NCBI GenBank assembly: GCA_029093145.1
Contig: GCA_029093145.1_4347.1
Source of the DNA: a phage
Length of the DNA: 44,066 bases
Reading direction: 5' to 3' (one strand)
The translations under genes were made by a program, and so were the position numbers. Shown here in pieces: positions 13,099 to 41,051 of the stretch; position 1 is the stretch's first letter; each line of letters starts with the position of its first letter. The notes under the pieces are model-generated. The model saw only the letters and a program-made list of their open reading frames with translations. It was not told the origin of the DNA and ran no database searches.

Positions 13099-14265
13099 AT
13101 GGCTACAACTCCTTTTAAGGGCGCGAATACCGCGCAATTCTATGTGGCGGAAGTGACCCCGGGCGTAACACCGACTAACCCGGTATGGTCGCCACTGCGT
13201 AACACAGGCGGCGTTCCTGCCATTACCCGTGACACGCTGACCTCCAACGAACTTGACGGCAGCCGAGAAACCACATCCATCCGCACCGGTAACAAGCAGG
13301 TTAGCGGAGAATACGCTATTGAGCTTAGCTCTAAAAGTCAGGACGACTGGTTAGCCGGGGCTTTAGGCTCTACGTGGCAATCCGGCGTTTCCCTGTCAGG
13401 ACTATCGATTACCGTCGCACCCGCGGGCAAGACGTTCACACGCGCTACCGGCAGTTTTATCACTGACGGAGTTGGGGTAGGCGACCTGATTGCGTTTACC
13501 GATTTAACAGGCGATAACGTAAAACCATTTATTGTTACTGCAGTAACGGCTACGGTTGTTACTGGTGCGGGCATCCAACACACCCTGACCACCGAGACAA
13601 AAACTAGTAAGGCTAAAACTGGCGACACGTTGGAAACCGGTAACACGTGTAAGACGTTCTCTATCCTTACCTGGTACAAAGGCCAGTGCGGCGGTACTGA
13701 CGCGTACACGTTAACCAAAGGCGTGGAAGTTTCTGGTTTTACCATCGAACAGGCTGTTAACGCGATGGTAACTGGCAGCTTCCCATTCATCGGTCGCAGT
13801 CAGGAGATTCTCACTACGCCGCCGACCGGTTCCAACTTCTCATCTGTTACTTTTGGTGATGAGCCGTTCTCTTCGGTTGACGTTTCCGTGTTCGACGGCT
13901 CTACGCCGTTGCGTTGCGACAGCCTGACTATCACCAACGATAACAGCGCGTCCGCGCAGTTCGAACTTGGTAACACTAACGTAGCGTTTGTGGAGCGTAG
14001 CCGTGCAGCTAACACATTCTCTATCTCTGGCAAGCTGTACGACATGGCGATGATTCAGAAGTTTATCAACGAGCAGCAGGTAGAGATTAACTCTATTCTG
14101 GCAGGGGTAAACGGGGCTATGTCTTTCAGTTTGAAACGTGCAGAGCTTACGGCGGTTACACCTGAGATTGGTGGGCCTGAGTCAATCACTCAGTCCATTG
14201 AAGGCCAGGCTACCGGCAATCAGTACCAGTCGTCTATCGTAATTCAACGTATCACCTACGCATAA
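13099..14265 (+). CDS. major tail protein (putative)
   Basis: ~388 aa ORF upstream of chaperone/tape-measure region; SD AAGAGG before ATG 13099. Confidence 0.6.
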   Translation: MATTPFKGANTAQFYVAEVTPGVTPTNPVWSPLRNTGGVPAITRDTLTSNELDGSRETTSIRTGNKQVSGEYAIELSSKSQDDWLAGALGSTWQSGVSLSGLSITVAPAGKTFTRATGSFITDGVGVGDLIAFTDLTGDNVKPFIVTAVTATVVTGAGIQHTLTTETKTSKAKTGDTLETGNTCKTFSILTWYKGQCGGTDAYTLTKGVEVSGFTIEQAVNAMVTGSFPFIGRSQEILTTPPTGSNFSSVTFGDEPFSSVDVSVFDGSTPLRCDSLTITNDNSASAQFELGNTNVAFVERSRAANTFSISGKLYDMAMIQKFINEQQVEINSILAGVNGAMSFSLKRAELTAVTPEIGGPESITQSIEGQATGNQYQSSIVIQRITYA

Positions 14266-14296: not shown

Positions 14297-14848
14297 CAAA
14301 CCTAATTTTAAAGCAATGTCTATAACGTTCGATTTAACGTCACCCGGTATGATGTAGGTGTCGTAATCTTTTACACCACTAACATCGTACAGATAGCCAC
14401 GGCTATCGCAGATGAACGTATAGCCGTCACGATGGAGGCGGACGATTCGCACGTCATGCCCCGCGGCGACGATAGGGGCAACTTCACTGGCGAATCCACC
14501 ATCGGACACTACAAAAACTTCGTCGCCGTCAGGCAAGTTTTCAGCAAGATACTTACCGAAATAATCATCGCCGAATACCGGTTTAATGAATTGCTCAGAA
14601 ATGGCAATCATTAACCGGCGGCGGGACAACCCATTAAGAAAACCCTCGGGTTTTTCTTTCCGCGCCCGGTCGTCGTAGCCGTCGAGAAATTCGTGGTAAG
14701 CATCCTGGCCTAACGCTGCCAAAGCAATATTGAACATTGGATTCTTGAAACTGGTAGTTCCTTTCGCAAAGCCCATTTCTACCAGCGCCATAGCAAGCGT
14801 GTCTTTCCCGCAACCCGCAGGGCCATTAAGAATAATTACCTTAGCCAT
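14294..14848 (-). CDS. P-loop kinase, dNMP-kinase-like
   Basis: Walker A GPAGCGKDT at N-terminus; SRRRLM segment recalled as typical of T4 gp1-type dNMP kinases. Confidence 0.65.
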   Translation of the reverse strand: MAKVIILNGPAGCGKDTLAMALVEMGFAKGTTSFKNPMFNIALAALGQDAYHEFLDGYDDRARKEKPEGFLNGLSRRRLMIAISEQFIKPVFGDDYFGKYLAENLPDGDEVFVVSDGGFASEVAPIVAAGHDVRIVRLHRDGYTFICDSRGYLYDVSGVKDYDTYIIPGDVKSNVIDIALKLGL

Positions 14849-15336
14849 TATTTATCGCTCCCGTGTGGTTTTAAGTGTGTAGAGTTCCCGTTACAGTCGT
14901 ATTCGGTAACTGCGTGTGCAGTTATGCCGAGGTCACGGAAATGCTTTATTACCGCTGGAGAGTCGTCGAACGCACACAAGATTCTTTCCAGTCCGAAAGC
15001 ACGCAACACCTCTTCTTTAATTACGATGTCTTTTCTGTTGTCGTGTTTGCTGCGCATGATTAGCGTGTCAAACCTAACGTTATTCTCTCGTAACCATTCG
15101 CGAGTCTCCTCCTCAGCGTCATCACTTCGCCCGGTAAGGATAATTATAGTAAGTCCGGAATGCCACAGTACGCTACACAAATGGATATTGTCGTATATCG
15201 GAGCGTCATCTTTGCAGGCCATGTTAAATGGCTTCCACGCCCACGTTTCTCCGTAGTTATCTTTTGGTAACAGGTGTAAGCGATGGGTACCGTCGGCCAA
15301 TGTCCCGTCTAAATCGAAAATTACAATATCTTTCAT
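14848..15336 (-). CDS. HAD-superfamily phosphatase (Pnk-phosphatase / 5'-nucleotidase-like)
   Basis: HAD motif I IVIFDLDGTLA, motif II ILTGR, motif IV AFDDS; overlaps flanking genes by 1-4 nt. Confidence 0.7.
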   Translation of the reverse strand: MKDIVIFDLDGTLADGTHRLHLLPKDNYGETWAWKPFNMACKDDAPIYDNIHLCSVLWHSGLTIIILTGRSDDAEEETREWLRENNVRFDTLIMRSKHDNRKDIVIKEEVLRAFGLERILCAFDDSPAVIKHFRDLGITAHAVTEYDCNGNSTHLKPHGSDK

Positions 15337-16463
15337 CCCAGCATCTCCGGTGAAATAGTTAAACGTGCGACCTCGCCATATTCGGCGCTATAAGTAATTA
15401 CATTTGCACTGCGGCCCGACATCCATCCGCCGCGAGAGGCGTAGGCGTCTTTAGCCGCTAAGGTGCGGTGTTGCTCAACAATCATGTTACGGCTTTCTAC
15501 AATCTTCTGGTGGTGCAGATGGCCTACGTGGGCGTAGCTGTAAACACTCTCGCCGAACGCTTTACGGAACTTGGCAATCATAACCGGTTCGATAGCGTCG
15601 AATCGTGCTTTATGCCCGTGATGGAAGAACAGCGTCGTTTTGCCGTGTTGCACCATCTTGTAAACATCCGGCGACGTATCAACAATCACTCGGCTGTCGT
15701 TTGAGTATAAAACCGTGAACATTTCAGCAAGCCATACGGAGCCAACAGGGTCGTGGTTACCTTGAACGATTAAAAGTTTTACTGTGTGATGCTTAACCAG
15801 CGCCATATCAACAACACGGCGGACCATACGAATCATGTAACGTACCAGTTTCTGATAGCGAGTATCCGCATCTAATACATGGCGCGACTCGGGGGTAACG
15901 GCATCAAGACTATCGAAGTGTGCGAAGTCCCCAAGCAGGTTAATAACTCCTGTTCCTGCATCCGGTGCTTTCTGAAACGCCGCGTCGAACCACCGAGAGA
16001 ACAGGTCTTCTGCAATCTTCATGTCCCAGTCGTCGCCGCTCTCATCGGCCCATGCCAGCATACCGAGATGGAAATCAGATACCGTGTAAAGATTGAGTAG
16101 TTTATCGTCACGTTTGGCGCGCGCCGCTTTAACAGGCGCAACGGGCGTAATCTCTGACTTCATGCCCTCTATTACGGCTTTCATCAATTCAACCTGACGT
16201 TCGGCGTCGGTATCAGTCTTAACCCATTGCAACTTAGTGTTGCCGAACTCGTCCACCAGGGACGACGTTCCTTTAATCTTGTAACCGTCTGGTACAAGGT
16301 GGCTAACGTCGCGCCCGTGGCCCACGCCTTTCTTAGCCAGCTTCGCTTTACGGATACGAATTACGCGGTCTGAGATGCCGTATTTACGGGCGATATCTAC
16401 ATTCTTCATACCGGCGTTCAATTCTTCCTGCAACTGTTCGTCGGTTATTTTCTTCCGGGCCAT
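15333..16463 (-). CDS. HTH-fused calcineurin-like metallophosphoesterase
   Basis: N-terminal HTH-like region; metallophosphoesterase motifs SDFHLG, GDFAHFD, GNHD, HHGH, GHLHH; SD GAGGAA. Confidence 0.65.
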   Translation of the reverse strand: MARKKITDEQLQEELNAGMKNVDIARKYGISDRVIRIRKAKLAKKGVGHGRDVSHLVPDGYKIKGTSSLVDEFGNTKLQWVKTDTDAERQVELMKAVIEGMKSEITPVAPVKAARAKRDDKLLNLYTVSDFHLGMLAWADESGDDWDMKIAEDLFSRWFDAAFQKAPDAGTGVINLLGDFAHFDSLDAVTPESRHVLDADTRYQKLVRYMIRMVRRVVDMALVKHHTVKLLIVQGNHDPVGSVWLAEMFTVLYSNDSRVIVDTSPDVYKMVQHGKTTLFFHHGHKARFDAIEPVMIAKFRKAFGESVYSYAHVGHLHHQKIVESRNMIVEQHRTLAAKDAYASRGGWMSGRSANVITYSAEYGEVARLTISPEMLG

Positions 16464-16500
16464 GTTTATTCCTCGTGCTTAGGATTTGTCTTATAGTAGC

Positions 16501-16692
16501 CTACTTCTCTTTCACGTTCGAGTTGCAAGCCCAGATTAAAATGAATACCCACGGCAACAGAATCCACCCGAGAAATAAGTTAGCCATGAATATCGCCAGC
16601 TTTGCTTTATGGTTACGCATATGTGCCACCAAAAACGGGATAAAATAAACGGCTACAAAAATAATTAAGAAGAACATAGTGATACCGGTCAT
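16501..16692 (-). CDS. small membrane protein resembling superinfection-immunity-type proteins
   Basis: Two hydrophobic segments with NLFLGWILLPWVFILIWA motif; SD AGGAG before ATG 16692 (track ORF extends to 16719). Confidence 0.4.
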   Translation of the reverse strand: MTGITMFFLIIFVAVYFIPFLVAHMRNHKAKLAIFMANLFLGWILLPWVFILIWACNSNVKEK

Positions 16693-16743
16693 AACATAAC
16701 TCCTGATTTGAGATAACATCGTTGGTGTAAGTGAATAGTACGC

Positions 16744-16772
16744 TATTATATTGGGGAGTGCAAGTAGTGTGC
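16744..16772 (-). promoter_or_regulatory. class B promoter TTGCAC-N17-TACTAT driving the accessory operon
   Basis: Minus strand TTGCACTCCCCAATATAATAGCGTACTATTCAC; dyad AATAG-N4-CTATT at 16743-16756. Confidence 0.5.
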
Positions 16773-16870
16773 TAGAATAATTTTGCGCCTAGTGTCGCAC
16801 ACGAAAAGCGGGTGGTTCCCGTCTGGCGCATTTCCTTTAACCAGTAACCTCTTAACCAAAGGATTAAAGA

Positions 16871-17287
16871 TTGAAACTTTCTGATTTTTATTACGAAGCG
16901 GAAGCCGAAAAGGGCGCACGTATGCCGATACCGCTAAAAGACGGTACTGATTCCGGGGAATGGCTTAATGTTGTTTCTCCTGAGGCGGACGTTGCCGTTA
17001 AGGCTATGCGCGCGTTCACCCTTGCATACCGGGCAGTATTAGGGAAATTAAAACCGCTTCGTGATAAGTGCGAAGAGATGAAAGATTTCTCTGAATACAA
17101 CCTGAAGATGGAAGACGCGGCGACGGACCTTAACCGTCAGTTAGCGATTGAATTGGTTAACGGGTGGAGCCTTGACGACGAATTCAATAAAGAGAATCTG
17201 AACACACTCCTGACGCAATATAAACGACTCGCGGAACTTGTTGTTGTGTTTCATAACGAACAACTGCACCAGCTACAGGAAAAGTAG
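16871..17287 (+). CDS. tail assembly chaperone (gpG-like)
   Basis: Position immediately upstream of tape measure; TTG start with SD AAGGA. Confidence 0.55.
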   Translation: MKLSDFYYEAEAEKGARMPIPLKDGTDSGEWLNVVSPEADVAVKAMRAFTLAYRAVLGKLKPLRDKCEEMKDFSEYNLKMEDAATDLNRQLAIELVNGWSLDDEFNKENLNTLLTQYKRLAELVVVFHNEQLHQLQEK

Positions 17288-21122: not shown

Positions 21123-22529
21123 ATGAGCGACTTATACTTTCCACGTAGCCTTAAGCCGGTGGTATCAAAAGGCTACTCAATGACCAGACGTAACAACGTC
21201 TGGAGTGTCGATTTAGCGGGTGGCGGGGTGCGTCAGGGCCGTGACACGTATTATGATGTGTTCCCAATAAGCGTAACCCTGATTACATCCGCAATGGGGC
21301 GGCAGGCGTTTCTGTCGTTCCTCGAGAAAGTCGATGGTGGCGCGTCAAGTTTCTGGATGGCGCACGACTTCGGCATGGGTATTGAGGATTATCAAGTCAC
21401 CATTACATCCACCGTCGCCGAGTCCACTGAAGACGGCATTAACTGGACGATTACTTTCACGGCAACCGCCGAGAAATCACCGTTCCAGGACCTTGAGAAC
21501 CAGTGCCTGATTAACAATCTGCCAGATTTGTACGGCTGCTATGGTGACTGCCTGGGTAGTTTCCTGAAAATATACGCTAACTATGAGACGACGTTCCCGC
21601 GCATCTGGAGCAATGAAGGGCCTGCAGGATACCCGCCGATTAACCTTCTGGCATCCACGCTTGATAGCCGCATTGTGTATGATGGACCACAGGTTTACTA
21701 CATCAACAGAAACGGTAATCTTGTGCAGTCAGCAACTAATGAATGGCCTCTTACGTTTATTAATGGGGTTGCTGTTGGGCGAGTTCCGCCTGAGGATGAA
21801 TCAACAAATAGTATCTTATATTCTGCAGACTTCAATAATTCATCGTGGAGTAGAACAAGGATAACAGTTGAGAATGACGTTTTATCTTCCCCTCTCATGC
21901 ATAGTCTTGCCGACAAGTTAGTGGCAACATCAGTAAATGGAGCGCACGGATTAACTCAACCAATACTACCAATCGGCTCAAATGAGTACTCTGTTAGCTT
22001 TTTCATTAAAGCTGGTGGTCTGGGGAAATCTCTTGTGCAAATAGGGACATTTTCAAGCCAGACCAACCCTAACCCAGTAACTATTGACCTTATCAGCGGA
22101 GTTATAACGTCAGCCAATGATTTCACAAGATGCGGAATATTACCTATCTCAGATGACTGGTATTTCGTCTGGACATCATCAACAACAACTTCATCACCAA
22201 GCAATATCCGGGCTGCGTGTTTTCTTACCGATCAATCAGGTAATACCACATTTACAGGAAATGATGTGGATGGTATCTATCTATGGGGAGCAAAATTAGA
22301 AAAATCAGAATTTGCCACTTCGCCAATAATAACCAATTCTTCTGCTGTAACCCGCCAAGCGGCATCGGCAAAAGTAGTAATGAACGACGCAATAAGCATC
22401 GACATAACCTATTCCGACGGCTCTGTGGTAAACGTTCAGGCTGTTGACGGTTATGCCGCCATCCCCCAAGCGGATTCTTCGTGGGGCAGTAAATACATCA
22501 CTCGTATCGACTTTAATGTGGGCGGTTAA
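21123..22529 (+). CDS. minor/distal tail protein (putative)
   Basis: 468 aa ORF first after tape measure; ATG with upstream GGGG. Confidence 0.5.
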   Translation: MSDLYFPRSLKPVVSKGYSMTRRNNVWSVDLAGGGVRQGRDTYYDVFPISVTLITSAMGRQAFLSFLEKVDGGASSFWMAHDFGMGIEDYQVTITSTVAESTEDGINWTITFTATAEKSPFQDLENQCLINNLPDLYGCYGDCLGSFLKIYANYETTFPRIWSNEGPAGYPPINLLASTLDSRIVYDGPQVYYINRNGNLVQSATNEWPLTFINGVAVGRVPPEDESTNSILYSADFNNSSWSRTRITVENDVLSSPLMHSLADKLVATSVNGAHGLTQPILPIGSNEYSVSFFIKAGGLGKSLVQIGTFSSQTNPNPVTIDLISGVITSANDFTRCGILPISDDWYFVWTSSTTTSSPSNIRAACFLTDQSGNTTFTGNDVDGIYLWGAKLEKSEFATSPIITNSSAVTRQAASAKVVMNDAISIDITYSDGSVVNVQAVDGYAAIPQADSSWGSKYITRIDFNVGG

Positions 22530-23048: not shown

Positions 23049-23410
23049 ATATTAACGACTACACGGGCATACCTTACGACTTTCGCAAGCGCAATTGCTG
23101 GCATCACGTTCGCATTGTACGGGCCGATGCCGGGTTAGAAACCCCGGCGTTCGACGTTACAAGCCCAACGGCGATTAACGAAGCGTTCGACGAAGGCCAT
23201 CGTGACACGAAGGGGCTTACAAAAATTGATAAGCCTGAAAACTTCTGTGCGGTTCTTATGGGGTATCGCCGTGGCGGTCGTATCGTGTGGCACGCGGGAG
23301 TTTACTTCGACGGGATGGTGAGTCATTGCGAGCTTGCGTCCCGTCAGGTACGACTTGACCGGCTGGCGGACCTCAGAGACACGTACACGGAGATTGAATT
23401 TTGGCGATAA
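23045..23410 (+). CDS. tail assembly protein (Cys/His-containing, possibly NlpC/P60-like)
   Basis: Overlapping start; NCWHHV and SHCE motifs; position before large tip protein. Confidence 0.35.
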   Translation: MNINDYTGIPYDFRKRNCWHHVRIVRADAGLETPAFDVTSPTAINEAFDEGHRDTKGLTKIDKPENFCAVLMGYRRGGRIVWHAGVYFDGMVSHCELASRQVRLDRLADLRDTYTEIEFWR

Positions 23411-25968
23411 TCCTGCACTACACGCGAAACGCTGAAGGCGCTTTCGACCGTACAAAACACGTCGGGATGCCGATAGATTTTGTCGTTAACCATATTCCTG
23501 ACGGGGTGCCTGCGCGCGTCTACCTCGGCGAGATTGGCGATGATACTGATGTTACAGACGACTTCAATGCGCTCAAAGACGAGGACGCCGTGTACCACAT
23601 TATCGAGGGTGCAGGCGGTGGTATCGGCGACGCTATCGGTAGTGTATTCAGTTTCATCCTTAAGCCAATTGCCAAATTGTTCGGGCTAAACACAGCAGCT
23701 AACGCTAATTATTCCGCTACCAACAATCAGGCTACGTCGCCTAACAACAGTCTTACCGACCGCTCGAACAAGCCACGTCCTTATGAACGTTCTTATGACA
23801 TCTGCGGGACAGTGCAGACTATACCCAATGACCTGATGCAGACGTATAAGGTGTTTAACGCCACGGGGGCGCTTATTGAATATGCGTACTATGACGCCGG
23901 TCGAGGGTATCTGCATATTGAGGAAGACGGTGTAACTGAGGCAGATACCCGAATCAGCGAGATAACTGGCTCGTCGGTGGCGGTGTATTCCCCTTACACT
24001 TCGCCGAATAACACCAGCACACCACAATTGCATATCGGCGACCCTATAGACCAGAAATTGTACGTTACATTTAAAAACGCCGATGTCGATGGCGCTGTTC
24101 TTCCCGCCCCTAATGATATCGCTATAGACGTGCAGGACTACACTGTCCAGCGGCAGGGAACAACCGGCGTTGTAGTAGGCGATGACGCTGGTTTCGATGA
24201 GTTTTTGGCGGTCGGGGACCTGGCATACTTCGATAACGTATATGCAGATACAACCCCAGGGTCTTTGGGTAATGAGGTTAACCTGGACGGGAGGTACACG
24301 GTTCTTTCTGTTAGTGAAACGACCCTTATTGTGGACGTCAGTACAAATCAATCAATATGGAACCAGCTAGGAACATCTGTATGGTTTATAGGTGAAGAGG
24401 GCAACCATCTTATAGGCCCGGCGGATACTTACGCGGCTTCCCTCTCTGAATGGGCGTACATCACCCGCGGAACCGTCGACCGTGTTGTAGCCAATGTGGC
24501 TGCCAGCAACGGCATGTACAAATACAACGGCGACTATAACCGCGCTTCAGTGACAGTCGAACTGCAATACCAGATGGTAGATGAATTGAAACAGCCTGTA
24601 GGTGACATATTTACCGTACGAGGAACCGTAACAGGCCGGAACACGGATTACACAGGGATTACTCTTTACGGAAGTTTACCAACTGCTTCCAGATTCCGCG
24701 CCCGTATGCGTCGTGTTTCGGACACCGATAAAGATTTTGAAGGTACTGTTAGCGACGAGGTTACTTTCACTAATCTGTATGGGCAGTCGCTGGACACAAC
24801 CCCCCACTACGGCAACCGTACTACCGTACACTGCGCCCGTAAACAAACCCCACGTGCAGCCGAGGTGTCCGAACCGGAACTGCGCATGATTGCAACCGAG
24901 ATGTGCTACAAATACTTAGGTAACGGCGTATTCGATACGGTAATGACACCGAACACTCAGGCCGTGCAGTCGCTAATCAGGCTGGCGCGTGACCCTGTGG
25001 TGGGTAATCTGGAACTGACAACGGCAAATATGGACAAGTTACTTGCCGTGCAGGAAGAAATTGAGTCGTATTTTGACAGTGAATTAGCCGGGCAGTTCTG
25101 CTACACATTCGACGACTACGACACAACCATGCAAGACATCGTTCAGACCATCGCGGAAGCCGTGTTTTGTACGGCATACCGTAAAGGTGCTGATATTATG
25201 CTGCGATTCGACCGTCCTGTTGCGGGGCCTGAGATGGTTTTCACCCACCGCAGCAAAACGACCGGTACGGAGAAATGGACGCGCACGTTCAACGATTCGA
25301 CAACCTACGATAGCCTGTCGTTCTCGTACATTGACCCGGATACAAACGTACAGGAGACGATTTATATCCCGGAAGAACTCGGCGCGAACACCGAGGAGTA
25401 CGAATCGAAGGGTGTACGTAACTATCAGCAAGCGTACTGGCTGGCGTGGCGTCGCTACCAGCGCAACACGTTAAGTAAAGTTGTCGTAGAGTTCGAAGCT
25501 ACCGAAGAAGGCGCTCTCGCTACTCCCGGCGGCGTAATCAGTGTGGTTAAAGGCTCGCGTATCGCGCCGCAGGATGGTTATGTTGTTGCCGTCAATGGCC
25601 TTACGCTGACGCTGTCTCAGCCTGTTACGTTTACTCCTGGTGATGACCATTCCATCATTCTTAAGAAGCGCGACGGCTCTGTGCAGAGTATTTCTGTTAT
25701 CAAAGGAAGCCACGACCGCGAAGTGATTATGCTCTCCGCGCCGGAGGAGGCAATCTACACGGGGAATAGTGCGCTAAAAACTGAGTTTTCATTCGGCAAC
25801 GAAGCAAGGCATAATGCTCAGAAGATAGTTGTTTCTTCAATCGACCCCGGCGACGACCGCACGGTCAAGATTACGGGCTACAACTATGATGACGGATTCT
25901 ATAAATACGACGGCGTCGCGCCATACGGCAGCGGTTTCTCCGACGGATTCAGCAATGGTTTTAATTAA
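23401..25968 (+). CDS. tail tip / central fibre protein (J-like, putative)
   Basis: 855 aa ORF in distal tail module; start codon uncertain (TTG 23401 or downstream ATG). Confidence 0.55.
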   Translation: MAIILHYTRNAEGAFDRTKHVGMPIDFVVNHIPDGVPARVYLGEIGDDTDVTDDFNALKDEDAVYHIIEGAGGGIGDAIGSVFSFILKPIAKLFGLNTAANANYSATNNQATSPNNSLTDRSNKPRPYERSYDICGTVQTIPNDLMQTYKVFNATGALIEYAYYDAGRGYLHIEEDGVTEADTRISEITGSSVAVYSPYTSPNNTSTPQLHIGDPIDQKLYVTFKNADVDGAVLPAPNDIAIDVQDYTVQRQGTTGVVVGDDAGFDEFLAVGDLAYFDNVYADTTPGSLGNEVNLDGRYTVLSVSETTLIVDVSTNQSIWNQLGTSVWFIGEEGNHLIGPADTYAASLSEWAYITRGTVDRVVANVAASNGMYKYNGDYNRASVTVELQYQMVDELKQPVGDIFTVRGTVTGRNTDYTGITLYGSLPTASRFRARMRRVSDTDKDFEGTVSDEVTFTNLYGQSLDTTPHYGNRTTVHCARKQTPRAAEVSEPELRMIATEMCYKYLGNGVFDTVMTPNTQAVQSLIRLARDPVVGNLELTTANMDKLLAVQEEIESYFDSELAGQFCYTFDDYDTTMQDIVQTIAEAVFCTAYRKGADIMLRFDRPVAGPEMVFTHRSKTTGTEKWTRTFNDSTTYDSLSFSYIDPDTNVQETIYIPEELGANTEEYESKGVRNYQQAYWLAWRRYQRNTLSKVVVEFEATEEGALATPGGVISVVKGSRIAPQDGYVVAVNGLTLTLSQPVTFTPGDDHSIILKKRDGSVQSISVIKGSHDREVIMLSAPEEAIYTGNSALKTEFSFGNEARHNAQKIVVSSIDPGDDRTVKITGYNYDDGFYKYDGVAPYGSGFSDGFSNGFN

Positions 25969-25980
25969 AGAGGACTCTAT

Positions 25981-27966
25981 ATGTCAAGCGGATGCGGTGA
26001 CGTTTTAAGCCTGGCGGATTTACAAACCGCCAAGAAACACCAAATTTTTGAAGCCGAGGTTATCACCGGTAAATCCGGCGGGGTTGCTGGTGGCGCCGAT
26101 ATTGATTACGCGACCAACCCTGTTACCGGGCAGACCCAGAAGACGCTTCCTGCTGTGTTGCGTGATGCCGGTTTTTCTCCCGTATCGTGGGACTTTTCCA
26201 CCGGCGGTACGTTAACAGTTAATGACCGCGACAAAGTGGTGTATGACCCCGTAAGCAAGACGTGGTACTCATATGCGGGTACGTTGCCGGTTGTTGTTCC
26301 CGCGAGTTTTAATCCAGTCGGTAACGCTAACTGGAAGCCGCAGACAGACCCAAATTTGCGTAATGATTTGGCGTCAAGTACCGCCGGTTTAGGGGCTTCA
26401 CTGGTGTCTTTTTCCAACGGTAACACCGTTGAAACATTATCTGACGCGGAAGGTGCCAAGAACATAGGCAGTGGCGAAAGGAGTTTGCTTGCACGTAACA
26501 ATGATATTAAGCATTCTGGCGACTTTTCTACCCTTCAAGCCGCGGTAGATGCGTCGTTAACTAAAAACGACTTAATTGTTTCTCCGGGTGAGTATACAGA
26601 AGCAATCACTCTGGGTAGTAATCAGATAAAAGGTGTAGGTGGCGCTGCAATATTAAAACCATCGGCAAACTATGCAAATACTGTACAGGTTAATTTATCC
26701 ACCCCGCACTGGCAGTTTCGACACAGCGGTGGTTTTGCCGTAGATGGTACAGGTACAACTGGGGCCGTAGGTATTAGTTTTGACCCGTCAGACCAATATT
26801 CCGGACGTCATAATTTTAGTGATTTATACATCCACAACATCAACAAGGCCATTCAGAAGCCTTCCGGGAACATCGGCAATACGTGGAGAAGTATTGGGAT
26901 ATCTACGTGTGATTGGGGGTATTACGCGATTAGTGGCTCGGAGATGCATTGCGGGGCCGATACCCTCTACAATATCCACTTCGACGGCATCTCCACCTAT
27001 GCCGTCTACCTAAACGGCACTGTCGATAACGGCGGGATAGGCGGATGGTGGCTTAAAGACTCCATTATTGAGGCTTCCGGAGGCGGCGGGATATATTTAA
27101 AAAGCAAATCAGGTGACTGCCCTACATCTCCATGCGGGGTATCCAATGTATGGACGGAAGCGATTGCAACATCATCGGCTGTTCAGGTAGACGGCGTGGC
27201 GCAAAAACCGCGAGTTCTCAAGTTGGTAGACACCGCGATATTCTTTGCTGAGTATTCTTATCTCAATAACATCGAGCTATCCAACTCCAACTTAGTAACT
27301 TATGGTTGCCGTTTTGACAACGCTGATGGTAATCAGGATATTGTAGTGGATGCACAAAGCACCATCGTAGCCCACGACGTGTATTTAAACGGCAGCTCTG
27401 GAAAGGACGTTATTGTAGAGTCTGTCGCGTCGCAATCCGCAACGATAGCCACTACAAACTTGTCTCTACGAGGAAATTTAACAAGGGGACGAGTGTTTAA
27501 TACGCCGACGGGGAATAAGTTAAAAGCTATCACATTTGACTCAGGTAGCCATAATTTTTCTGGTAGCGGTACCGTTAACGGTTCGACTGTATCTGACGGA
27601 CTTCACGCCGCTACATGTACCGAATTTTCATTCCCTGGGTCCGGTTTATATGAAATGGTAGCGTCAAGAACGACACTTACATCCGGTAGATGGTACGTGT
27701 GGGGCGTCAACTCTCGCCTCCAATCAGGAACAGCAGATGTGAGTATAACGTTAGGTATTACTATGGGTAGCGTTTATACTAAGTCTGGTGAGTGGATTAG
27801 CACATTTGGGGTGGGTAAAGCTTCCGCTAACGGTATTGTAGGTCTGTACGTCTCTACTGGGGGAGGTTCAGGTGCTGTTATCAGATTTAGTGACTTCTTC
27901 ATCGCTGAGTTTACGACGCAGGCTCAGGCTTTAGCTTTCGCTAACTCCCGAATGTCGTTGGCTTAA
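25981..27966 (+). CDS. tailspike / receptor-binding protein (putative)
   Basis: 661 aa, last gene of tail module, Gly/Ser/Thr/Asn-rich repetitive beta-type composition; SD AAGAGGA. Confidence 0.55.
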   Translation: MSSGCGDVLSLADLQTAKKHQIFEAEVITGKSGGVAGGADIDYATNPVTGQTQKTLPAVLRDAGFSPVSWDFSTGGTLTVNDRDKVVYDPVSKTWYSYAGTLPVVVPASFNPVGNANWKPQTDPNLRNDLASSTAGLGASLVSFSNGNTVETLSDAEGAKNIGSGERSLLARNNDIKHSGDFSTLQAAVDASLTKNDLIVSPGEYTEAITLGSNQIKGVGGAAILKPSANYANTVQVNLSTPHWQFRHSGGFAVDGTGTTGAVGISFDPSDQYSGRHNFSDLYIHNINKAIQKPSGNIGNTWRSIGISTCDWGYYAISGSEMHCGADTLYNIHFDGISTYAVYLNGTVDNGGIGGWWLKDSIIEASGGGGIYLKSKSGDCPTSPCGVSNVWTEAIATSSAVQVDGVAQKPRVLKLVDTAIFFAEYSYLNNIELSNSNLVTYGCRFDNADGNQDIVVDAQSTIVAHDVYLNGSSGKDVIVESVASQSATIATTNLSLRGNLTRGRVFNTPTGNKLKAITFDSGSHNFSGSGTVNGSTVSDGLHAATCTEFSFPGSGLYEMVASRTTLTSGRWYVWGVNSRLQSGTADVSITLGITMGSVYTKSGEWISTFGVGKASANGIVGLYVSTGGGSGAVIRFSDFFIAEFTTQAQALAFANSRMSLA

Positions 27967-27968
27967 AA

Positions 27969-27995
27969 CTAAGGCCCCAAACGGGGCCTTTTCTC
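27969..27995. terminator. bidirectional terminator
   Basis: AAGGCCCC-AAAC-GGGGCCTT then TTCTCT. Confidence 0.65.
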
Positions 27996-28132
27996 TACTC
28001 TTCTGATAACTTCTCCAGTACAAACGCCAGTTGCGCATTAGCGGCGTCTCTTTGCTGACGTAGCCGCAGAACCTCTTCTTCGAGTTCCTTGATACGTTTT
28101 TGCAATGCCGGAATTGGGGCTATGATGTTCAT
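27995..28132 (-). CDS. small hypothetical protein (45 aa)
   Basis: Hand-translated minus ORF, ATGA-coupled to upstream Toprim gene. Confidence 0.3.
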   Translation of the reverse strand: MNIIAPIPALQKRIKELEEEVLRLRQQRDAANAQLAFVLEKLSEE

Positions 28133-28644
28133 CTGGTAAATTTCCTCGCAAGATACGTTATTTCTTCTTCACAAAGTTCATCGAGGTCGTTAGATACAAA
28201 TCCTCTGGTGAATGTTTTGCTGAACTTTAAGCCCGCTTTATCACTGTCACCGGCGCACACCCATTCATACGGCAAAAGTGACATTTGCTGCCGTAAGTCA
28301 GCTGGTATGTTCGACCCCAATGCGCTAACTGCATTAAACCCGCAATTCATCAAAGCAACAGCTTTAAATATGCTTTCGGTAACAAATACCACCCCGCTAC
28401 TTGGCAAATACTCAAGTCCCCATAAACACGGCCTTGTTGTTCGGGTAAAGTACCGCGCGTCTTTAGGGTTTTTACAGTTCTTTTCAGCATGCGGCTTGTA
28501 ATGCTGGTATCCTCGTAGCCTGCCGTCAAAACCCCACAAGTAGAATGTAGCAACGCCAGGGGCTAAGACTACCTGGAGACGGTCAGCGTCAAACCCACGC
28601 GCCAGCAGATGAGCTTTAAGTAGAAACTCTTCGAAATCCATCAT
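28129..28644 (-). CDS. Toprim-domain protein (DnaG-like primase catalytic core)
   Basis: VVFVTESIFKAVALMNCGFNAVSALG ... WVCAGDSDKAG matches Toprim E and DxD motifs. Confidence 0.6.
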   Translation of the reverse strand: MMDFEEFLLKAHLLARGFDADRLQVVLAPGVATFYLWGFDGRLRGYQHYKPHAEKNCKNPKDARYFTRTTRPCLWGLEYLPSSGVVFVTESIFKAVALMNCGFNAVSALGSNIPADLRQQMSLLPYEWVCAGDSDKAGLKFSKTFTRGFVSNDLDELCEEEITYLARKFTR

Positions 28645-40442: not shown

Positions 40443-40598
40443 ATGAGAATCCGTATAACTGACCGCAGGCTTATAGATTTCGGTATCTCGGTAGGTGATG
40501 TTTTTCTGGCGTTCAGCAGCAACCATTATGGGTATATGATTGAGTACAAAGGGTCGCTATTGTTCGTGTATCGGGATGAATGCGAGGTTCTGGTATGA
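40443..40598 (+). CDS. hypothetical small protein (51 aa)
   Basis: Hand-translated ORF. Confidence 0.3.
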   Translation: MRIRITDRRLIDFGISVGDVFLAFSSNHYGYMIEYKGSLLFVYRDECEVLV

Positions 40599-40738
40599 GA
40601 GAAGCATTCGAACGGTGGGCCATCGTCGAGGGTCTGCCGGTTAATAAGGGTTCGAAGAAAGAGTACCTGAACGTTAAGACGCGTCTCGCGTGGCGGGCGT
40701 GGAAAGCTGGTGCGCAAGCTGTGATGAATAAGGGGTGA
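40595..40738 (+). CDS. hypothetical small protein (47 aa)
   Basis: ATGA overlap with upstream ORF. Confidence 0.3.
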   Translation: MREAFERWAIVEGLPVNKGSKKEYLNVKTRLAWRAWKAGAQAVMNKG

Positions 40739-40741
40739 TTT

Positions 40742-40927
40742 ATGGGCGAGTGGATTAAGTGTAGTGAGCGGATGCCGGAGCCTTATGAATACGTTCTTGT
40801 AACTGATTGTTTTGTTGGCTGTGAGGTTATGCGTGTTAATTCAGATGGCTACTGGGGGCCTGCAAAGAGTTTATATCACGGTGATATAACGCACTGGATG
40901 CCGTTACCTGAGCCGCCGGAGGTGTGA
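40742..40927 (+). CDS. DUF551-like phage protein
   Basis: C-terminal HWMPLPEPPEV motif recalled as typical of this family. Confidence 0.4.
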   Translation: MGEWIKCSERMPEPYEYVLVTDCFVGCEVMRVNSDGYWGPAKSLYHGDITHWMPLPEPPEV

Positions 40928-41051
40928 TGTTCAATAGTTCGGGATTTTACTGAGTGACTTACGCTGCTACACAGCAGCGTATCATTTTTCTCATTTTTGT
41001 TCTATTTCACCAAACGCAACAATCGAAGCGACTATTGCAGGAGATGCAACA

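Follow-up and report, generated by a model that had tools for sequence, protein, structure and literature searches.

A Kagunavirus tailspike that joins a genus-specific anchor to a receptor-binding domain common to several unrelated E. coli phages

In the description of the genus Kagunavirus, the tailspike gene lies directly after the gene for a J-like hub. The Kagunaviruses K1G, K1H and K1ind carry endosialidase tailspikes, whose receptor domain, a beta-propeller of the sialidase type, is specific for the K1 capsule. For SHAK7858, a swap of the receptor-binding domain (RBD) with Kayfunavirus has already been described, together with AlphaFold models (2024 preprint). The attachment of a tailspike to the virion has been described for the Shigella siphophage Sf11: helices from the tailspike N-terminus form a bundle together with one helix of the distal tail protein, and the tail tip bears six tailspike trimers (PMC12724387).

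We analysed 44,066 nucleotides of phage DNA, referred to below as the window, with attention to the last gene of its tail module. The window belongs to a Kagunavirus, a small E. coli siphovirus; between positions 14000 and 38000 it is 92–95% identical in nucleotide sequence to the Kagunaviruses 22664BS2 and SHAK7858 over 87–91% of the length. Its tailspike is of an ordinary type that has been described before, composed of the anchor of the genus and an RBD common to several unrelated E. coli phages.

The tailspike gene and its surroundings

The features of the locus are collected in Table 1. The original prediction of a 661-residue reading frame was correct, as translation from the ATG to the stop codon on the + strand showed. 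The gene immediately follows the J-like hub gene, for which we took the start codon from the ATG annotated in relatives, and it is the final + strand gene of the tail module. The next block consists of replication genes on the − strand, convergent with the tail module, and the terminal position that had been proposed is thereby confirmed. A GC-rich hairpin with an 8-bp stem (positions 27971–27990) is located just 3′ of the tailspike stop codon, between the two convergent transcription units. Folded as RNA, it gave −15.5 kcal/mol (z = −4.5) for the + strand and −16.0 kcal/mol (z = −2.7) for the − strand.

Table 1. Features of the tailspike locus (positions in the window)
Feature	Position	Strand	Basis
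Distal tail protein homologue, 468 aa, candidate docking partner of the tailspike	21123..22529	+	phmmer
J-like central hub/tail tip protein, 833 aa	23467..25968	+	PHROG 469, 2.9e-247
Shine-Dalgarno sequence AGAGGA, 6 nt upstream of ATG	25969..25974	+	direct sequence reading
Tailspike coding sequence, 661 aa and stop	25981..27966	+	ORF list and translation
N1, aa 1–60, genus-specific virion-attachment module	25981..26160	+	segment identities
N2, aa 61–153, small Tail_spike_N-type beta domain, then conserved LRxxLAS..G motif and linker	26161..26439	+	Pfam, phmmer, identities
RBD cassette, aa 154–661	26440..27963	+	cross-platform alignments
Predicted right-handed parallel beta-helix, aa ~197–500	26569..27480	+	AF2/DSSP, Foldseek, hhalign, conservation
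Candidate catalytic carboxylates E364 (27070–27072) and E393 (27157–27159)	27070..27159	+	conservation
Predicted C-terminal beta-sandwich, aa ~512–644, and terminal helix, aa 647–656	27514..27948	+	AF2, pLDDT >94
Terminator-like hairpin AAGGCCCC-AAAC-GGGGCCTT with T-rich tail	27971..27996		sequence reading and RNA fold

Over its full length the gene is 99.3% identical in nucleotide sequence to that of vB_EcoS-22664BS2 (MZ234010), 99.1% to that of SHAK7858, 96.4% to that of phiEc3 and 93.4% to that of Golestan. The counterparts in 22664BS2 and SHAK7858 are annotated as tailspike or tail fibre, and PHROG 27367 matches the protein from end to end. These near-identical genes, together with the full-length family match, support the identification as a tailspike. 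The nearest cluster in a large protein database was 99% identical to the protein, not 100%.

Glycine, serine, threonine and asparagine together account for 38.4% of the protein, the second highest value among the 31 reading frames of at least 150 aa in the window (mean 25.0%, sd 6.2). The enrichment in these residues noted at the outset was therefore real, but the accompanying description of the sequence as repetitive did not survive: self-BLASTP returned the diagonal only, and Tandem Repeats Finder found no internal repeat beyond a trivial 9-nt × 2.1 match. Any repetition in the tailspike is structural, residing in the rungs of the beta-helix, and is invisible in the sequence.

Anchor modules, RBD cassette and tail tip

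Segmentwise identities to related proteins split the tailspike into three distinct modules, and the DNA of the gene has breakpoints at about nt 170 and about nt 450. Across all 74 Kagunavirus-type tailspikes listed, the identity of N1 is 83–100%, and almost every one of them reaches at least 93%, regardless of the RBD that lies downstream; in the segment comparison N1 was absent from other phage platforms. Alignment with the DNA of phage K-01 gave 100% nucleotide identity up to about nt 170 and about 60% beyond this point. The protein thus has a genus-specific N-terminal module within a Kagunavirus backbone. The structure model described below has a predicted helix in N1, at aa 11–29 (pLDDT 63–71).

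N2 is 73–100% identical among Kagunavirus-type proteins and 35–41% identical to proteins of the PF18668 type. Its score against Pfam PF18668 (Tail_spike_N) was 21.7 bits at aa 77–112, the gathering threshold being 25; this threshold was passed by 21 of 35 RBD-family members bearing other anchors. A phmmer search of the PDB with aa 1–170 returned 9lna_A (8.8e-08), Sf11 gp13 (9occ_G, 3.7e-05) and 9d84_A (4.5e-04), and PHROG tail spike families match aa 1–149. By both searches the N-terminal anchor is akin to established tailspike anchors. It is not P22-like, since Pfam gave no match to PF09008 (P22 Head_binding) in the window's tailspike; PF09008 was confined to prophage homologues of the RBD.

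The RBD is 89% identical in amino acid sequence to LM33_P1-type T7-like tail fibres, 88–90% to proteins bearing an Sf11-type (gp13-type) anchor, 81% to P22-type prophage tailspikes, one of which is encoded next to the prophage integrase, and 65% to the ES17 tail fibre. It is also present in an 842-aa protein of another siphovirus, and the family comprises 270 clusters at 50% identity. The alignments with the LM33_P1-type, Sf11-type, P22-type and ES17 proteins all begin at aa 154–158 of the window's tailspike, and by this evidence the RBD is a mobile cassette, exchanged as a unit between platforms. Recombination would take place at the junction of N2 and the RBD, between unrelated platforms that infect the same hosts. 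Megablast detected no prophage copies of the RBD in complete E. coli genomes. A sensitive blastn search of 5,426 E. coli genomes gave only two matches, of about 65% identity, and the reading of lysogen O-types from complete genomes was therefore given up.

A conserved anchor of about 120 residues forming a single domain, followed by a variable receptor part, had been expected. The division into anchor and RBD is correct in principle, because the anchor is found in front of many unrelated C-terminal domains, and the RBD recurs behind several unrelated anchors. The border, however, is at about aa 150–154, and the conserved N-terminal part consists of two modules rather than one domain.

The proteins of the tail tip were compared with those of Sf11. 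The 468-aa distal tail protein matches Sf11 gp17 (9occ_C; phmmer, 2e-71) over aa 158–466, and the 833-aa hub matches Sf11 gp14 (9occ_E; 2.8e-25). No similarity to Sf11 gp17 was detectable in the N-terminal 170 aa of the distal tail protein, and phmmer detected none between N1 and Sf11 gp13. A docking contact of the Sf11 kind, derived by homology, was accordingly rejected, and the docking mechanism is an analogy. Following this analogy, N1 with its predicted helix would fix the spike to the tail tip, probably by docking on the ring of distal tail protein, with six trimers per virion. The tailspike is most likely a homotrimer, and N2 would form the small beta domain and neck that are common to many tailspikes.

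Predicted fold, receptor and activity of the RBD

The RBD gave no match to Pfam-A, either in the window's protein or in 10 distant relatives. The whole tailspike had no match among PDB sequences, and the RBD has no sequence relative there. A single-sequence AlphaFold2 model (pLDDT 32) was discarded in favour of a monomer model built from a 71-row alignment (AF2), which has a mean pLDDT of 87.4 and values above 90 over aa 180–661. DSSP assigned a run of short strands across aa 197–500 of this model. Foldseek against the PDB returned 43 matches at E ≤ 0.001, nearly all of them beta-helix tailspikes or depolymerases, including TSP4 (the best match, 3.5e-12) and TSP2 of CBA120, K2-2 TSP, Sf6, HK620 and Det7; a few near the 0.001 end are other beta-helix carbohydrate enzymes. 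In a viral structure library the ES17 tail fibre was matched at 4.7e-67, with a query-normalised TM of 0.73. The carbohydrate-binding module 8xmz, found by Foldseek in the PDB with a target-normalised TM of 0.62, is listed for the C-terminal beta-sandwich, a part that varies more within the RBD family than the helix core does. A first hhalign run was dominated by head-binding rows, and an RBD-only profile was used instead. This 190-member alignment matched the Sf6 endorhamnosidase with a probability of 95.9% (E = 6.4e-9). The model, the fold matches and the profile match agree with the beta-helix that had been anticipated, so that the refutation test on the fold, as set at the outset, turned out in its favour, and the RBD is predicted to consist of a right-handed beta-helix followed by a C-terminal beta-sandwich.

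The most conserved stretch of the RBD across 35 family members is aa 321–460. Conserved residues of the beta-helix, in the set of 35 and in the set of 190, are R276, GNIGN at 296–300, H323, D327, E364, E393 and D457. In the 190 members, which extend down to about 25% identity, E393 is conserved in 100%, R276 in 94%, E364 in 93% and H323 in 92%. E364 and E393 lie one rung apart, and their conservation makes them the best candidates for catalytic residues. When the hhalign alignment is extended at low confidence, E364 comes to stand opposite Asp399, the catalytic residue of Sf6. As the confident columns cover only the first half of the helix, the catalytic residues of Sf6 are not transferable; the alignment with HK620 was not significant (probability 8.9%), and transfer by hhalign from either protein was abandoned. 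An acidic ladder, D327-D360-E393-E424-D457, was also considered. Its spacing is about 33 residues and a rung of the model about 28–29, so that the positions are not equivalent, and the ladder was rejected.

Phages that carry this RBD point to the receptor. Four of them, 22664BS2, 22664BS1, 101136BS1 and 101118UKE1, were isolated on DSM strains reported to be O25b-positive (PMC8614997). The strains lysed by phiEc3 and phiEc4 were mostly O25, with single O75 and O8 strains (PMC8285336), and LM33_P1 is an ST131-O25b:H4 phage by the title of Dufour et al. 2016. SHAK7858 and SHAK9454, which have the RBD in common, have similar host ranges, and SHAK9454 is reported to lyse strains across the K1, K2 and K5 capsule types. 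E. coli K-12 is without O-antigen. The record of vB_EcoP_LNA5, a Kayfunavirus with the RBD, gives E. coli K-12 MG1655 as host, a counter-hint to O25b dependence. On the association found in the literature, the receptor of the RBD is most probably the host O-antigen of serogroup O25/O25b, and the proposed role of the tailspike in host range is supported.

We consider it likely that the protein is the sole lateral receptor-binding protein of a Kagunavirus, a three-module tailspike with a swapped RBD cassette that binds, and probably cleaves, the O25/O25b O-antigen. The RBD would probably act as an endoglycosidase, and cleavage would allow the tail tip to reach the outer membrane. Since the RBD would bind and probably cleave the O-antigen of the host, it would also set the host range.

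O-antigen-specific tailspikes of the P22, Sf6 and HK620 architecture are usually endoglycosidases. This counts against a beta-helix domain that acts as a glycan-binding adhesin and keeps the virion attached, without catalysis, to the O-antigen or a different glycan, mammalian heparan sulfate being one possibility. The strict polar conservation in the helix core (E393, E364, H323 and R276) also speaks against an adhesin, being typical of an active site and unlike a rapidly evolving binding surface, and the top PDB fold matches are mostly enzymes. An adhesin would, however, fit the ES17 tail fibre, for which only binding to heparan sulfate proteoglycans was found and no depolymerase activity was detected by its authors. 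It would also fit the lack of a catalytic family signature in Pfam and the plaques of Golestan, a carrier of the RBD, which are clear, with no halo mentioned. Halo formation is, given Golestan, a weak refutation test for a depolymerase. The literature searched contained no report of enzymatic activity for the RBD family or for an O25b tailspike. On balance we regard an adhesin as unlikely. There is a slim chance that the chemistry of the RBD family differs from that of the classical tailspike glycosidases, and that the RBD binds mammalian heparan sulfate or mucin glycans like its ES17 homologue. If so, the RBD would place phages from several unrelated platforms on the mucosa of the gut or bladder, where ST131 lives.

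Two other enzymatic roles can be weighed against cleavage of the O-antigen. K1G and K1H, the prototype Kagunaviruses, pair the same anchor with a K1 endosialidase, and capsule depolymerases of Klebsiella are numerous among the fold matches, as would suit an RBD that degrades the capsule (K-antigen) instead of the O-antigen. The RBD nevertheless has no similarity to sialidase domains, the phages that carry it go with O25/O25b hosts, and lysis by SHAK9454 extends over three capsule types; a capsule depolymerase is very unlikely. The remaining possibility is a pectinesterase-like beta-helix carbohydrate esterase, which would remove O-acetyl groups from the O-antigen and leave the chain uncut. The authors of the ES17 study reported a weak pectinesterase domain match in the homologous protein, pectinesterase 8tne was hit over the first rungs (E = 0.27) when the PDB was searched with a profile, and the pectin methylesterase 2ntb is among the weaker fold matches. 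Set against this, none of the 35 family members matched Pfam Pectinesterase (CE8) at E ≤ 1, the weak match spans only the generic start of a beta-helix ('GxYxE ... G.G'), and the best structural matches are glycosidase tailspikes. We therefore consider an esterase extremely improbable.

The RBD probably decides whether this phage is able to attack E. coli of serogroup O25/O25b, to which the pandemic ST131 clone belongs, and it would be of practical use in the choice or engineering of therapeutic phages.

Comparison with known tailspikes

The tailspikes of 22664BS2, SHAK7858, phiEc3 and Golestan are the same gene in the same place, with allelic differences only. The endosialidases of K1G, K1H and K1ind have the same anchor and gene position, but their receptor domain is unrelated to the RBD described here. 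Sf11 (PDB 9OCC) has the same set of tail-tip genes, consisting of distal tail protein, small hub, large hub and then tailspike, and the C-terminal appendage of its distal tail protein gp17 is homologous to the 468-aa protein of the window. N2 of Sf11 gp13 is related to N2 of the window's tailspike, and Sf11-type anchors carry the window's RBD in other phages, whereas the RBD of gp13 itself is different and Sf6-like.

In TSP4 (PDB 5W6H) and TSP2 of CBA120, too, a beta-helix comes after a Tail_spike_N-type domain; they are 13% identical to the window's tailspike and form part of a branched complex of four spikes on a myovirus. The Sf6 tailspike endorhamnosidase (PDB 2VBK) and other P22-like tailspikes have a right-handed parallel beta-helix as receptor domain, as predicted here. 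Sf6 was matched by Foldseek at about 3e-06 (target-normalised TM up to 0.46), but is less than 20% identical and has a P22 head-binding anchor and a different C-terminal domain. In the ES17 tail fibre, phmmer gave 67% identity to the RBD; this protein is 1021 aa long, and its long N-terminal part is unlike that of the window's tailspike.

The RBD is homologous over its full length to that of LM33_P1 gp17 (YP_009324518), a Kayfunavirus protein. The two proteins are 83% identical over 568 aa, reaching the C-terminus, and some DNA stretches are 97–100% identical. They differ in length (726 and 661 aa), and gp17 has a T7-type anchor (PF03906) on a podovirus tail. The window thus presents a clean case of a receptor cassette common to a siphovirus, a T7-like podovirus, an Sf11-like siphovirus and P22-like prophages. 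It leaves current understanding unchanged, as ample documentation exists for modular tailspikes and for their horizontal exchange, including, for this RBD, the exchange already reported between Kagunavirus and Kayfunavirus.

The gene and its locus

The reading frame is as originally predicted, with its ATG at 25981, a stop codon ending at 27966 and a 661-aa product encoded on the + strand; the ATG is preceded, at a distance of 6 nt, by the ribosome-binding site AGAGGA. The gene is 99.3% identical in nucleotide sequence to the annotated tailspike gene of Escherichia phage vB_EcoS-22664BS2, 99.1% to the ‘tail fiber protein’ gene of SHAK7858, 96.4% to phiEc3, and 93.4% to Golestan and others. Window positions 14000–38000 matched Kagunavirus genomes (22664BS2, SHAK7858 and kin) at 92–95% nucleotide identity over 87–91% of the length; Kagunaviruses are small siphoviruses within the Guernseyvirinae. 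The gene encodes a Kagunavirus tailspike of modular build whose receptor-binding domain (RBD) is of the LM33_P1 type, LM33_P1 being a T7-like Kayfunavirus. Its annotation is correct and ordinary, and neither the gene nor its domain swap across families is new to the literature. RBD exchange is covered in 2023 literature (PMC10408124), and the Golestan paper remarked on 88% identity with the tail fibre of LM33_P1 before a 2024 preprint reported an RBD in common, AlphaFold models and similar host ranges for Kagunavirus SHAK7858 and Kayfunavirus SHAK9454. The SHAK7858 record (OR594183.1) carries the taxonomy Autographiviridae/Kayfunavirus and the name ‘vB_EcoM’ although the phage is a Kagunavirus siphovirus; this is an apparent record error. 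Others are the label ‘similar to terminase large subunit’ on the tail fibre gene of SHAK9454 (OR594184.1) and the label ‘hypothetical protein’ on the homologous genes in 22664BS1 and 101136BS1.

The gene order in the window is tape measure, 468-aa protein, DUF1833 protein, 121-aa protein, J-like hub and tailspike, followed by replication genes on the opposite strand. The hairpin 3′ of the tailspike stop codon folds on either strand (+ strand: −15.5 kcal/mol, z = −4.5), which is consistent with a terminator separating converging transcription units. The BASEL study (PMC11990801) describes this very locus for Kagunavirus, the tailspike gene coming immediately after that of a J-like central fibre protein.

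Several neighbouring features were also recorded. A mechanical call of the hub gene (23401–25968) starts at TTG 23401 and gives 855 aa; judging from the start used by relatives, ATG 23467 (~833 aa), this is probably too early. Just downstream of the tailspike, on the − strand (28129–28644), lies a 171-aa Toprim-like ‘primase’ fragment that covers only positions 149–333 of the 435-position PHROG primase profile; 22664BS2 and SHAK7858 also have this fragment, and K-01 lacks it at the corresponding place. A − strand block (~14300–17000), where the GC skew becomes negative, breaks into the + strand tail module; the gene for a 388-aa tail protein lies on one side of it, and those for the tail assembly chaperone and tape measure on the other. 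Its counterpart in SHAK7858 and K-01 encodes a dNMP kinase, a polynucleotide kinase, a DNA repair exonuclease and a superinfection immunity protein. SHAK7858 has an HNH endonuclease gene (40486–41001) between its holin and endolysin genes.

Coordinates of tailspike modules, predicted structural elements and the 3′ hairpin
Feature	Position	Observation
N1	aa 1–60	83–100% identity (≥93% in nearly all) across 74/74 Kagunavirus-type proteins, irrespective of the following domain; absent elsewhere
N2	aa 61–153	73–100% among Kagunavirus-type proteins; 35–41% to proteins with Pfam Tail_spike_N
RBD	aa 154–661	sits behind several unrelated N-termini
Helix	aa 11–29	AlphaFold2 model
Small beta domain	aa 43–120	AlphaFold2 model
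Short helices	aa 126–191	AlphaFold2 model, lower confidence
Long series of short strands	aa 197–500	AlphaFold2 model; period ~28–29 residues
Beta-sandwich	aa 512–644	AlphaFold2 model
Final helix	aa 647–656	AlphaFold2 model
Hairpin 3′ of stop	27971–27996	8-bp, GC-rich, T-rich tail; both strands fold

Modules and spread of the receptor-binding domain

Module borders were set by segment-wise BLASTP of the tailspike against 126 database relatives. An N-terminal attachment part does exist, but the size first proposed, ~120 aa, was too small: it spans ~150 aa in two parts, N1 and N2. Pfam Tail_spike_N scored 21.7 bits in the tailspike (threshold 25). The Kagunavirus anchor is combined with many C-terminal domains, including SGNH esterase, pectate-lyase-3, GDPD and S74. 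Against the tailspike gene of Kagunavirus K-01, which carries another RBD, DNA identity was 100% to ~nt 170 and ~60% thereafter. Against the LM33_P1 gene it was at background to ~nt 450, 65–77% over nt 451–750, 90–100% over nt 751–1420, ~78% near nt 1450 and 68–88% at the 3′ end. These steps mark the RBD itself as a mosaic and suggest, at the level of sequence, further recombination inside the receptor domain (window 26440–27963), not only at its border.

RBD alignments began at aa 154–158 and extended to the C-terminus on every platform. Identity over the RBD was 89% in T7-like Kayfunavirus tail fibres of the LM33_P1 type, 88–90% in 661-aa proteins whose first 155 aa correspond to the Sf11 tailspike gp13 (1.1e-69), 81% in P22-type tailspikes with a head-binding domain, encoded in a prophage beside its integrase, 65% in the 1021-aa ES17 tail fibre, 44–61% in anchorless proteins of 519–536 aa, and 44% in 842-aa proteins that another siphovirus of ~45 kb encodes at a distance from its J gene. 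In one such case, metagenomic contig ERR4228857_434 (4265–6793), the gene with the 44%-identical copy lies among replication genes, in the opposite orientation to the J gene and ~5 kb distant from it, an arrangement like a lateral fibre locus and not like the Kagunavirus layout. GenBank phages contributed 25 records with the RBD at 86–99% nucleotide identity, all Escherichia phages and, judged by name and record length, Kagunaviruses or Kayfunaviruses. An exhaustive HMMER search of 1.84 billion cluster representatives found 270 RBD clusters at E ≤ 0.001, 64 of them at E ≤ 1e-30.

Predicted fold, possible catalysis and likely receptor

The Gly/Ser/Thr/Asn richness that had drawn attention to the protein was borne out (38.4%, against a mean of 25.0%, sd 6.2, for the 31 window ORFs of at least 150 aa). 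Its supposed repetitiveness was not: self-BLASTP gave the diagonal only, and Tandem Repeats Finder returned nothing notable. The 388-aa ORF on the + strand from 13099, the ‘minor tail protein’ gene of relatives, is equally rich (38.9%), so composition alone cannot single out the tailspike.

An AlphaFold2 monomer model built from a 71-row alignment had a mean pLDDT of 87.4 and pTM of 0.73, with pLDDT >90 from aa 180 to the end; a single-sequence run gave pLDDT 32. Of the 43 PDB matches that Foldseek returned at E ≤ 0.001, nearly all were to tailspikes or depolymerases with a right-handed beta-helix; a few of the weakest were to other beta-helix enzymes acting on carbohydrates. CBA120 TSP4 ranked highest (3.5e-12), followed by KP32 gp38, K2-2 TSP, CBA120 TSP2, Sf6, HK620 and Det7; siphovirus 9NA fell just above the cut-off (1.1e-03). 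Global TM-scores were low (0.25–0.46), as long monomers of several domains would be expected to give. One further match was a carbohydrate-binding module (target-normalised TM 0.62), probably on the modelled C-terminal sandwich. Among predicted viral structures the ES17 tail fibre matched at 4.7e-67. A search of the PDB for sequence relatives of the RBD found none. A profile of the RBD alone (190 family members) aligned with the Sf6 endorhamnosidase (95.9% probability, E = 6.4e-9), in agreement with the model and the Foldseek matches; the outcome proposed as a refutation, a predicted fold lacking a beta-helix, was therefore not obtained.

The tailspikes of P22, Sf6 and HK620 are established models for O-antigen binding and cleavage by a beta-helix, and by analogy the RBD helix would bind and cleave O-antigen. 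Within the RBD, conservation peaks in the helix core (aa 321–460). Across the 190 members, down to ~25% identity, E393 is invariant and E364 (93%), R276 (94%), H323 (92%), D457 (86%), D327 (82%) and the GNIGN motif (aa 296–300) are strongly kept. E364 and E393 are 29 residues, or about one rung, apart, on modelled strands 357–366 and 385–395. This conservation counts in favour of catalysis, with E364 and E393 as candidate catalytic residues. Counting against it, the column of the Sf6 catalytic Asp399 reaches E364 only in a low-confidence extension of the alignment. The HK620 alignment to the RBD profile was not significant, and for the ES17 homologue heparan sulfate binding only is reported, with no cleavage detected. 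A pectinesterase-like esterase is a marginal alternative and fails the Pfam Pectinesterase test; no Pfam domain was found in the RBD region of any of 10 distant members tested.

Turning to the receptor of this putative O-antigen-cleaving domain, LM33_P1 is, by the title of its description, reportedly an ST131-O25b:H4 phage. The RBD carriers 22664BS2, 22664BS1, 101136BS1 and 101118UKE1 were isolated on DSM strains reported as O25b-positive by their authors, and the urinary isolates lysed by phiEc3 and phiEc4 are mostly O25, one O75 and one O8 strain being the exceptions. Another carrier, SHAK9454, lyses strains across the K1, K2 and K5 capsule types, which argues for O-antigen and not capsule. 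The O25/O25b O-antigen is likely the receptor. A counter-hint is the Kayfunavirus vB_EcoP_LNA5 (MZ311861.1; RBD at 86% nucleotide identity), whose host entry is E. coli K-12 MG1655. K-12 makes no O-antigen: the entry may be mistaken or may name a strain used for propagation, or else infection of rough strains does not strictly require the RBD. Dependence on surface glycans is a general Guernseyvirinae property according to the BASEL study (PMC11990801).

Proposed attachment to the tail tip

In the Shigella siphophage Sf11, the N-terminal helices of three gp13 tailspike chains bundle with a helix of the distal tail protein gp17, and six trimers sit on the tip (PMC12724387). The 468-aa protein of the window is a homologue of gp17 (2e-71 over aa 158–466), and the window hub is a homologue of the Sf11 hub gp14. 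No similarity to the Sf11 counterparts was detectable in N1 or in the first 170 aa of the 468-aa protein. That both of these regions differ together is compatible with their forming a matching docking pair, and by analogy the tailspike would dock on the distal tail protein as in Sf11.
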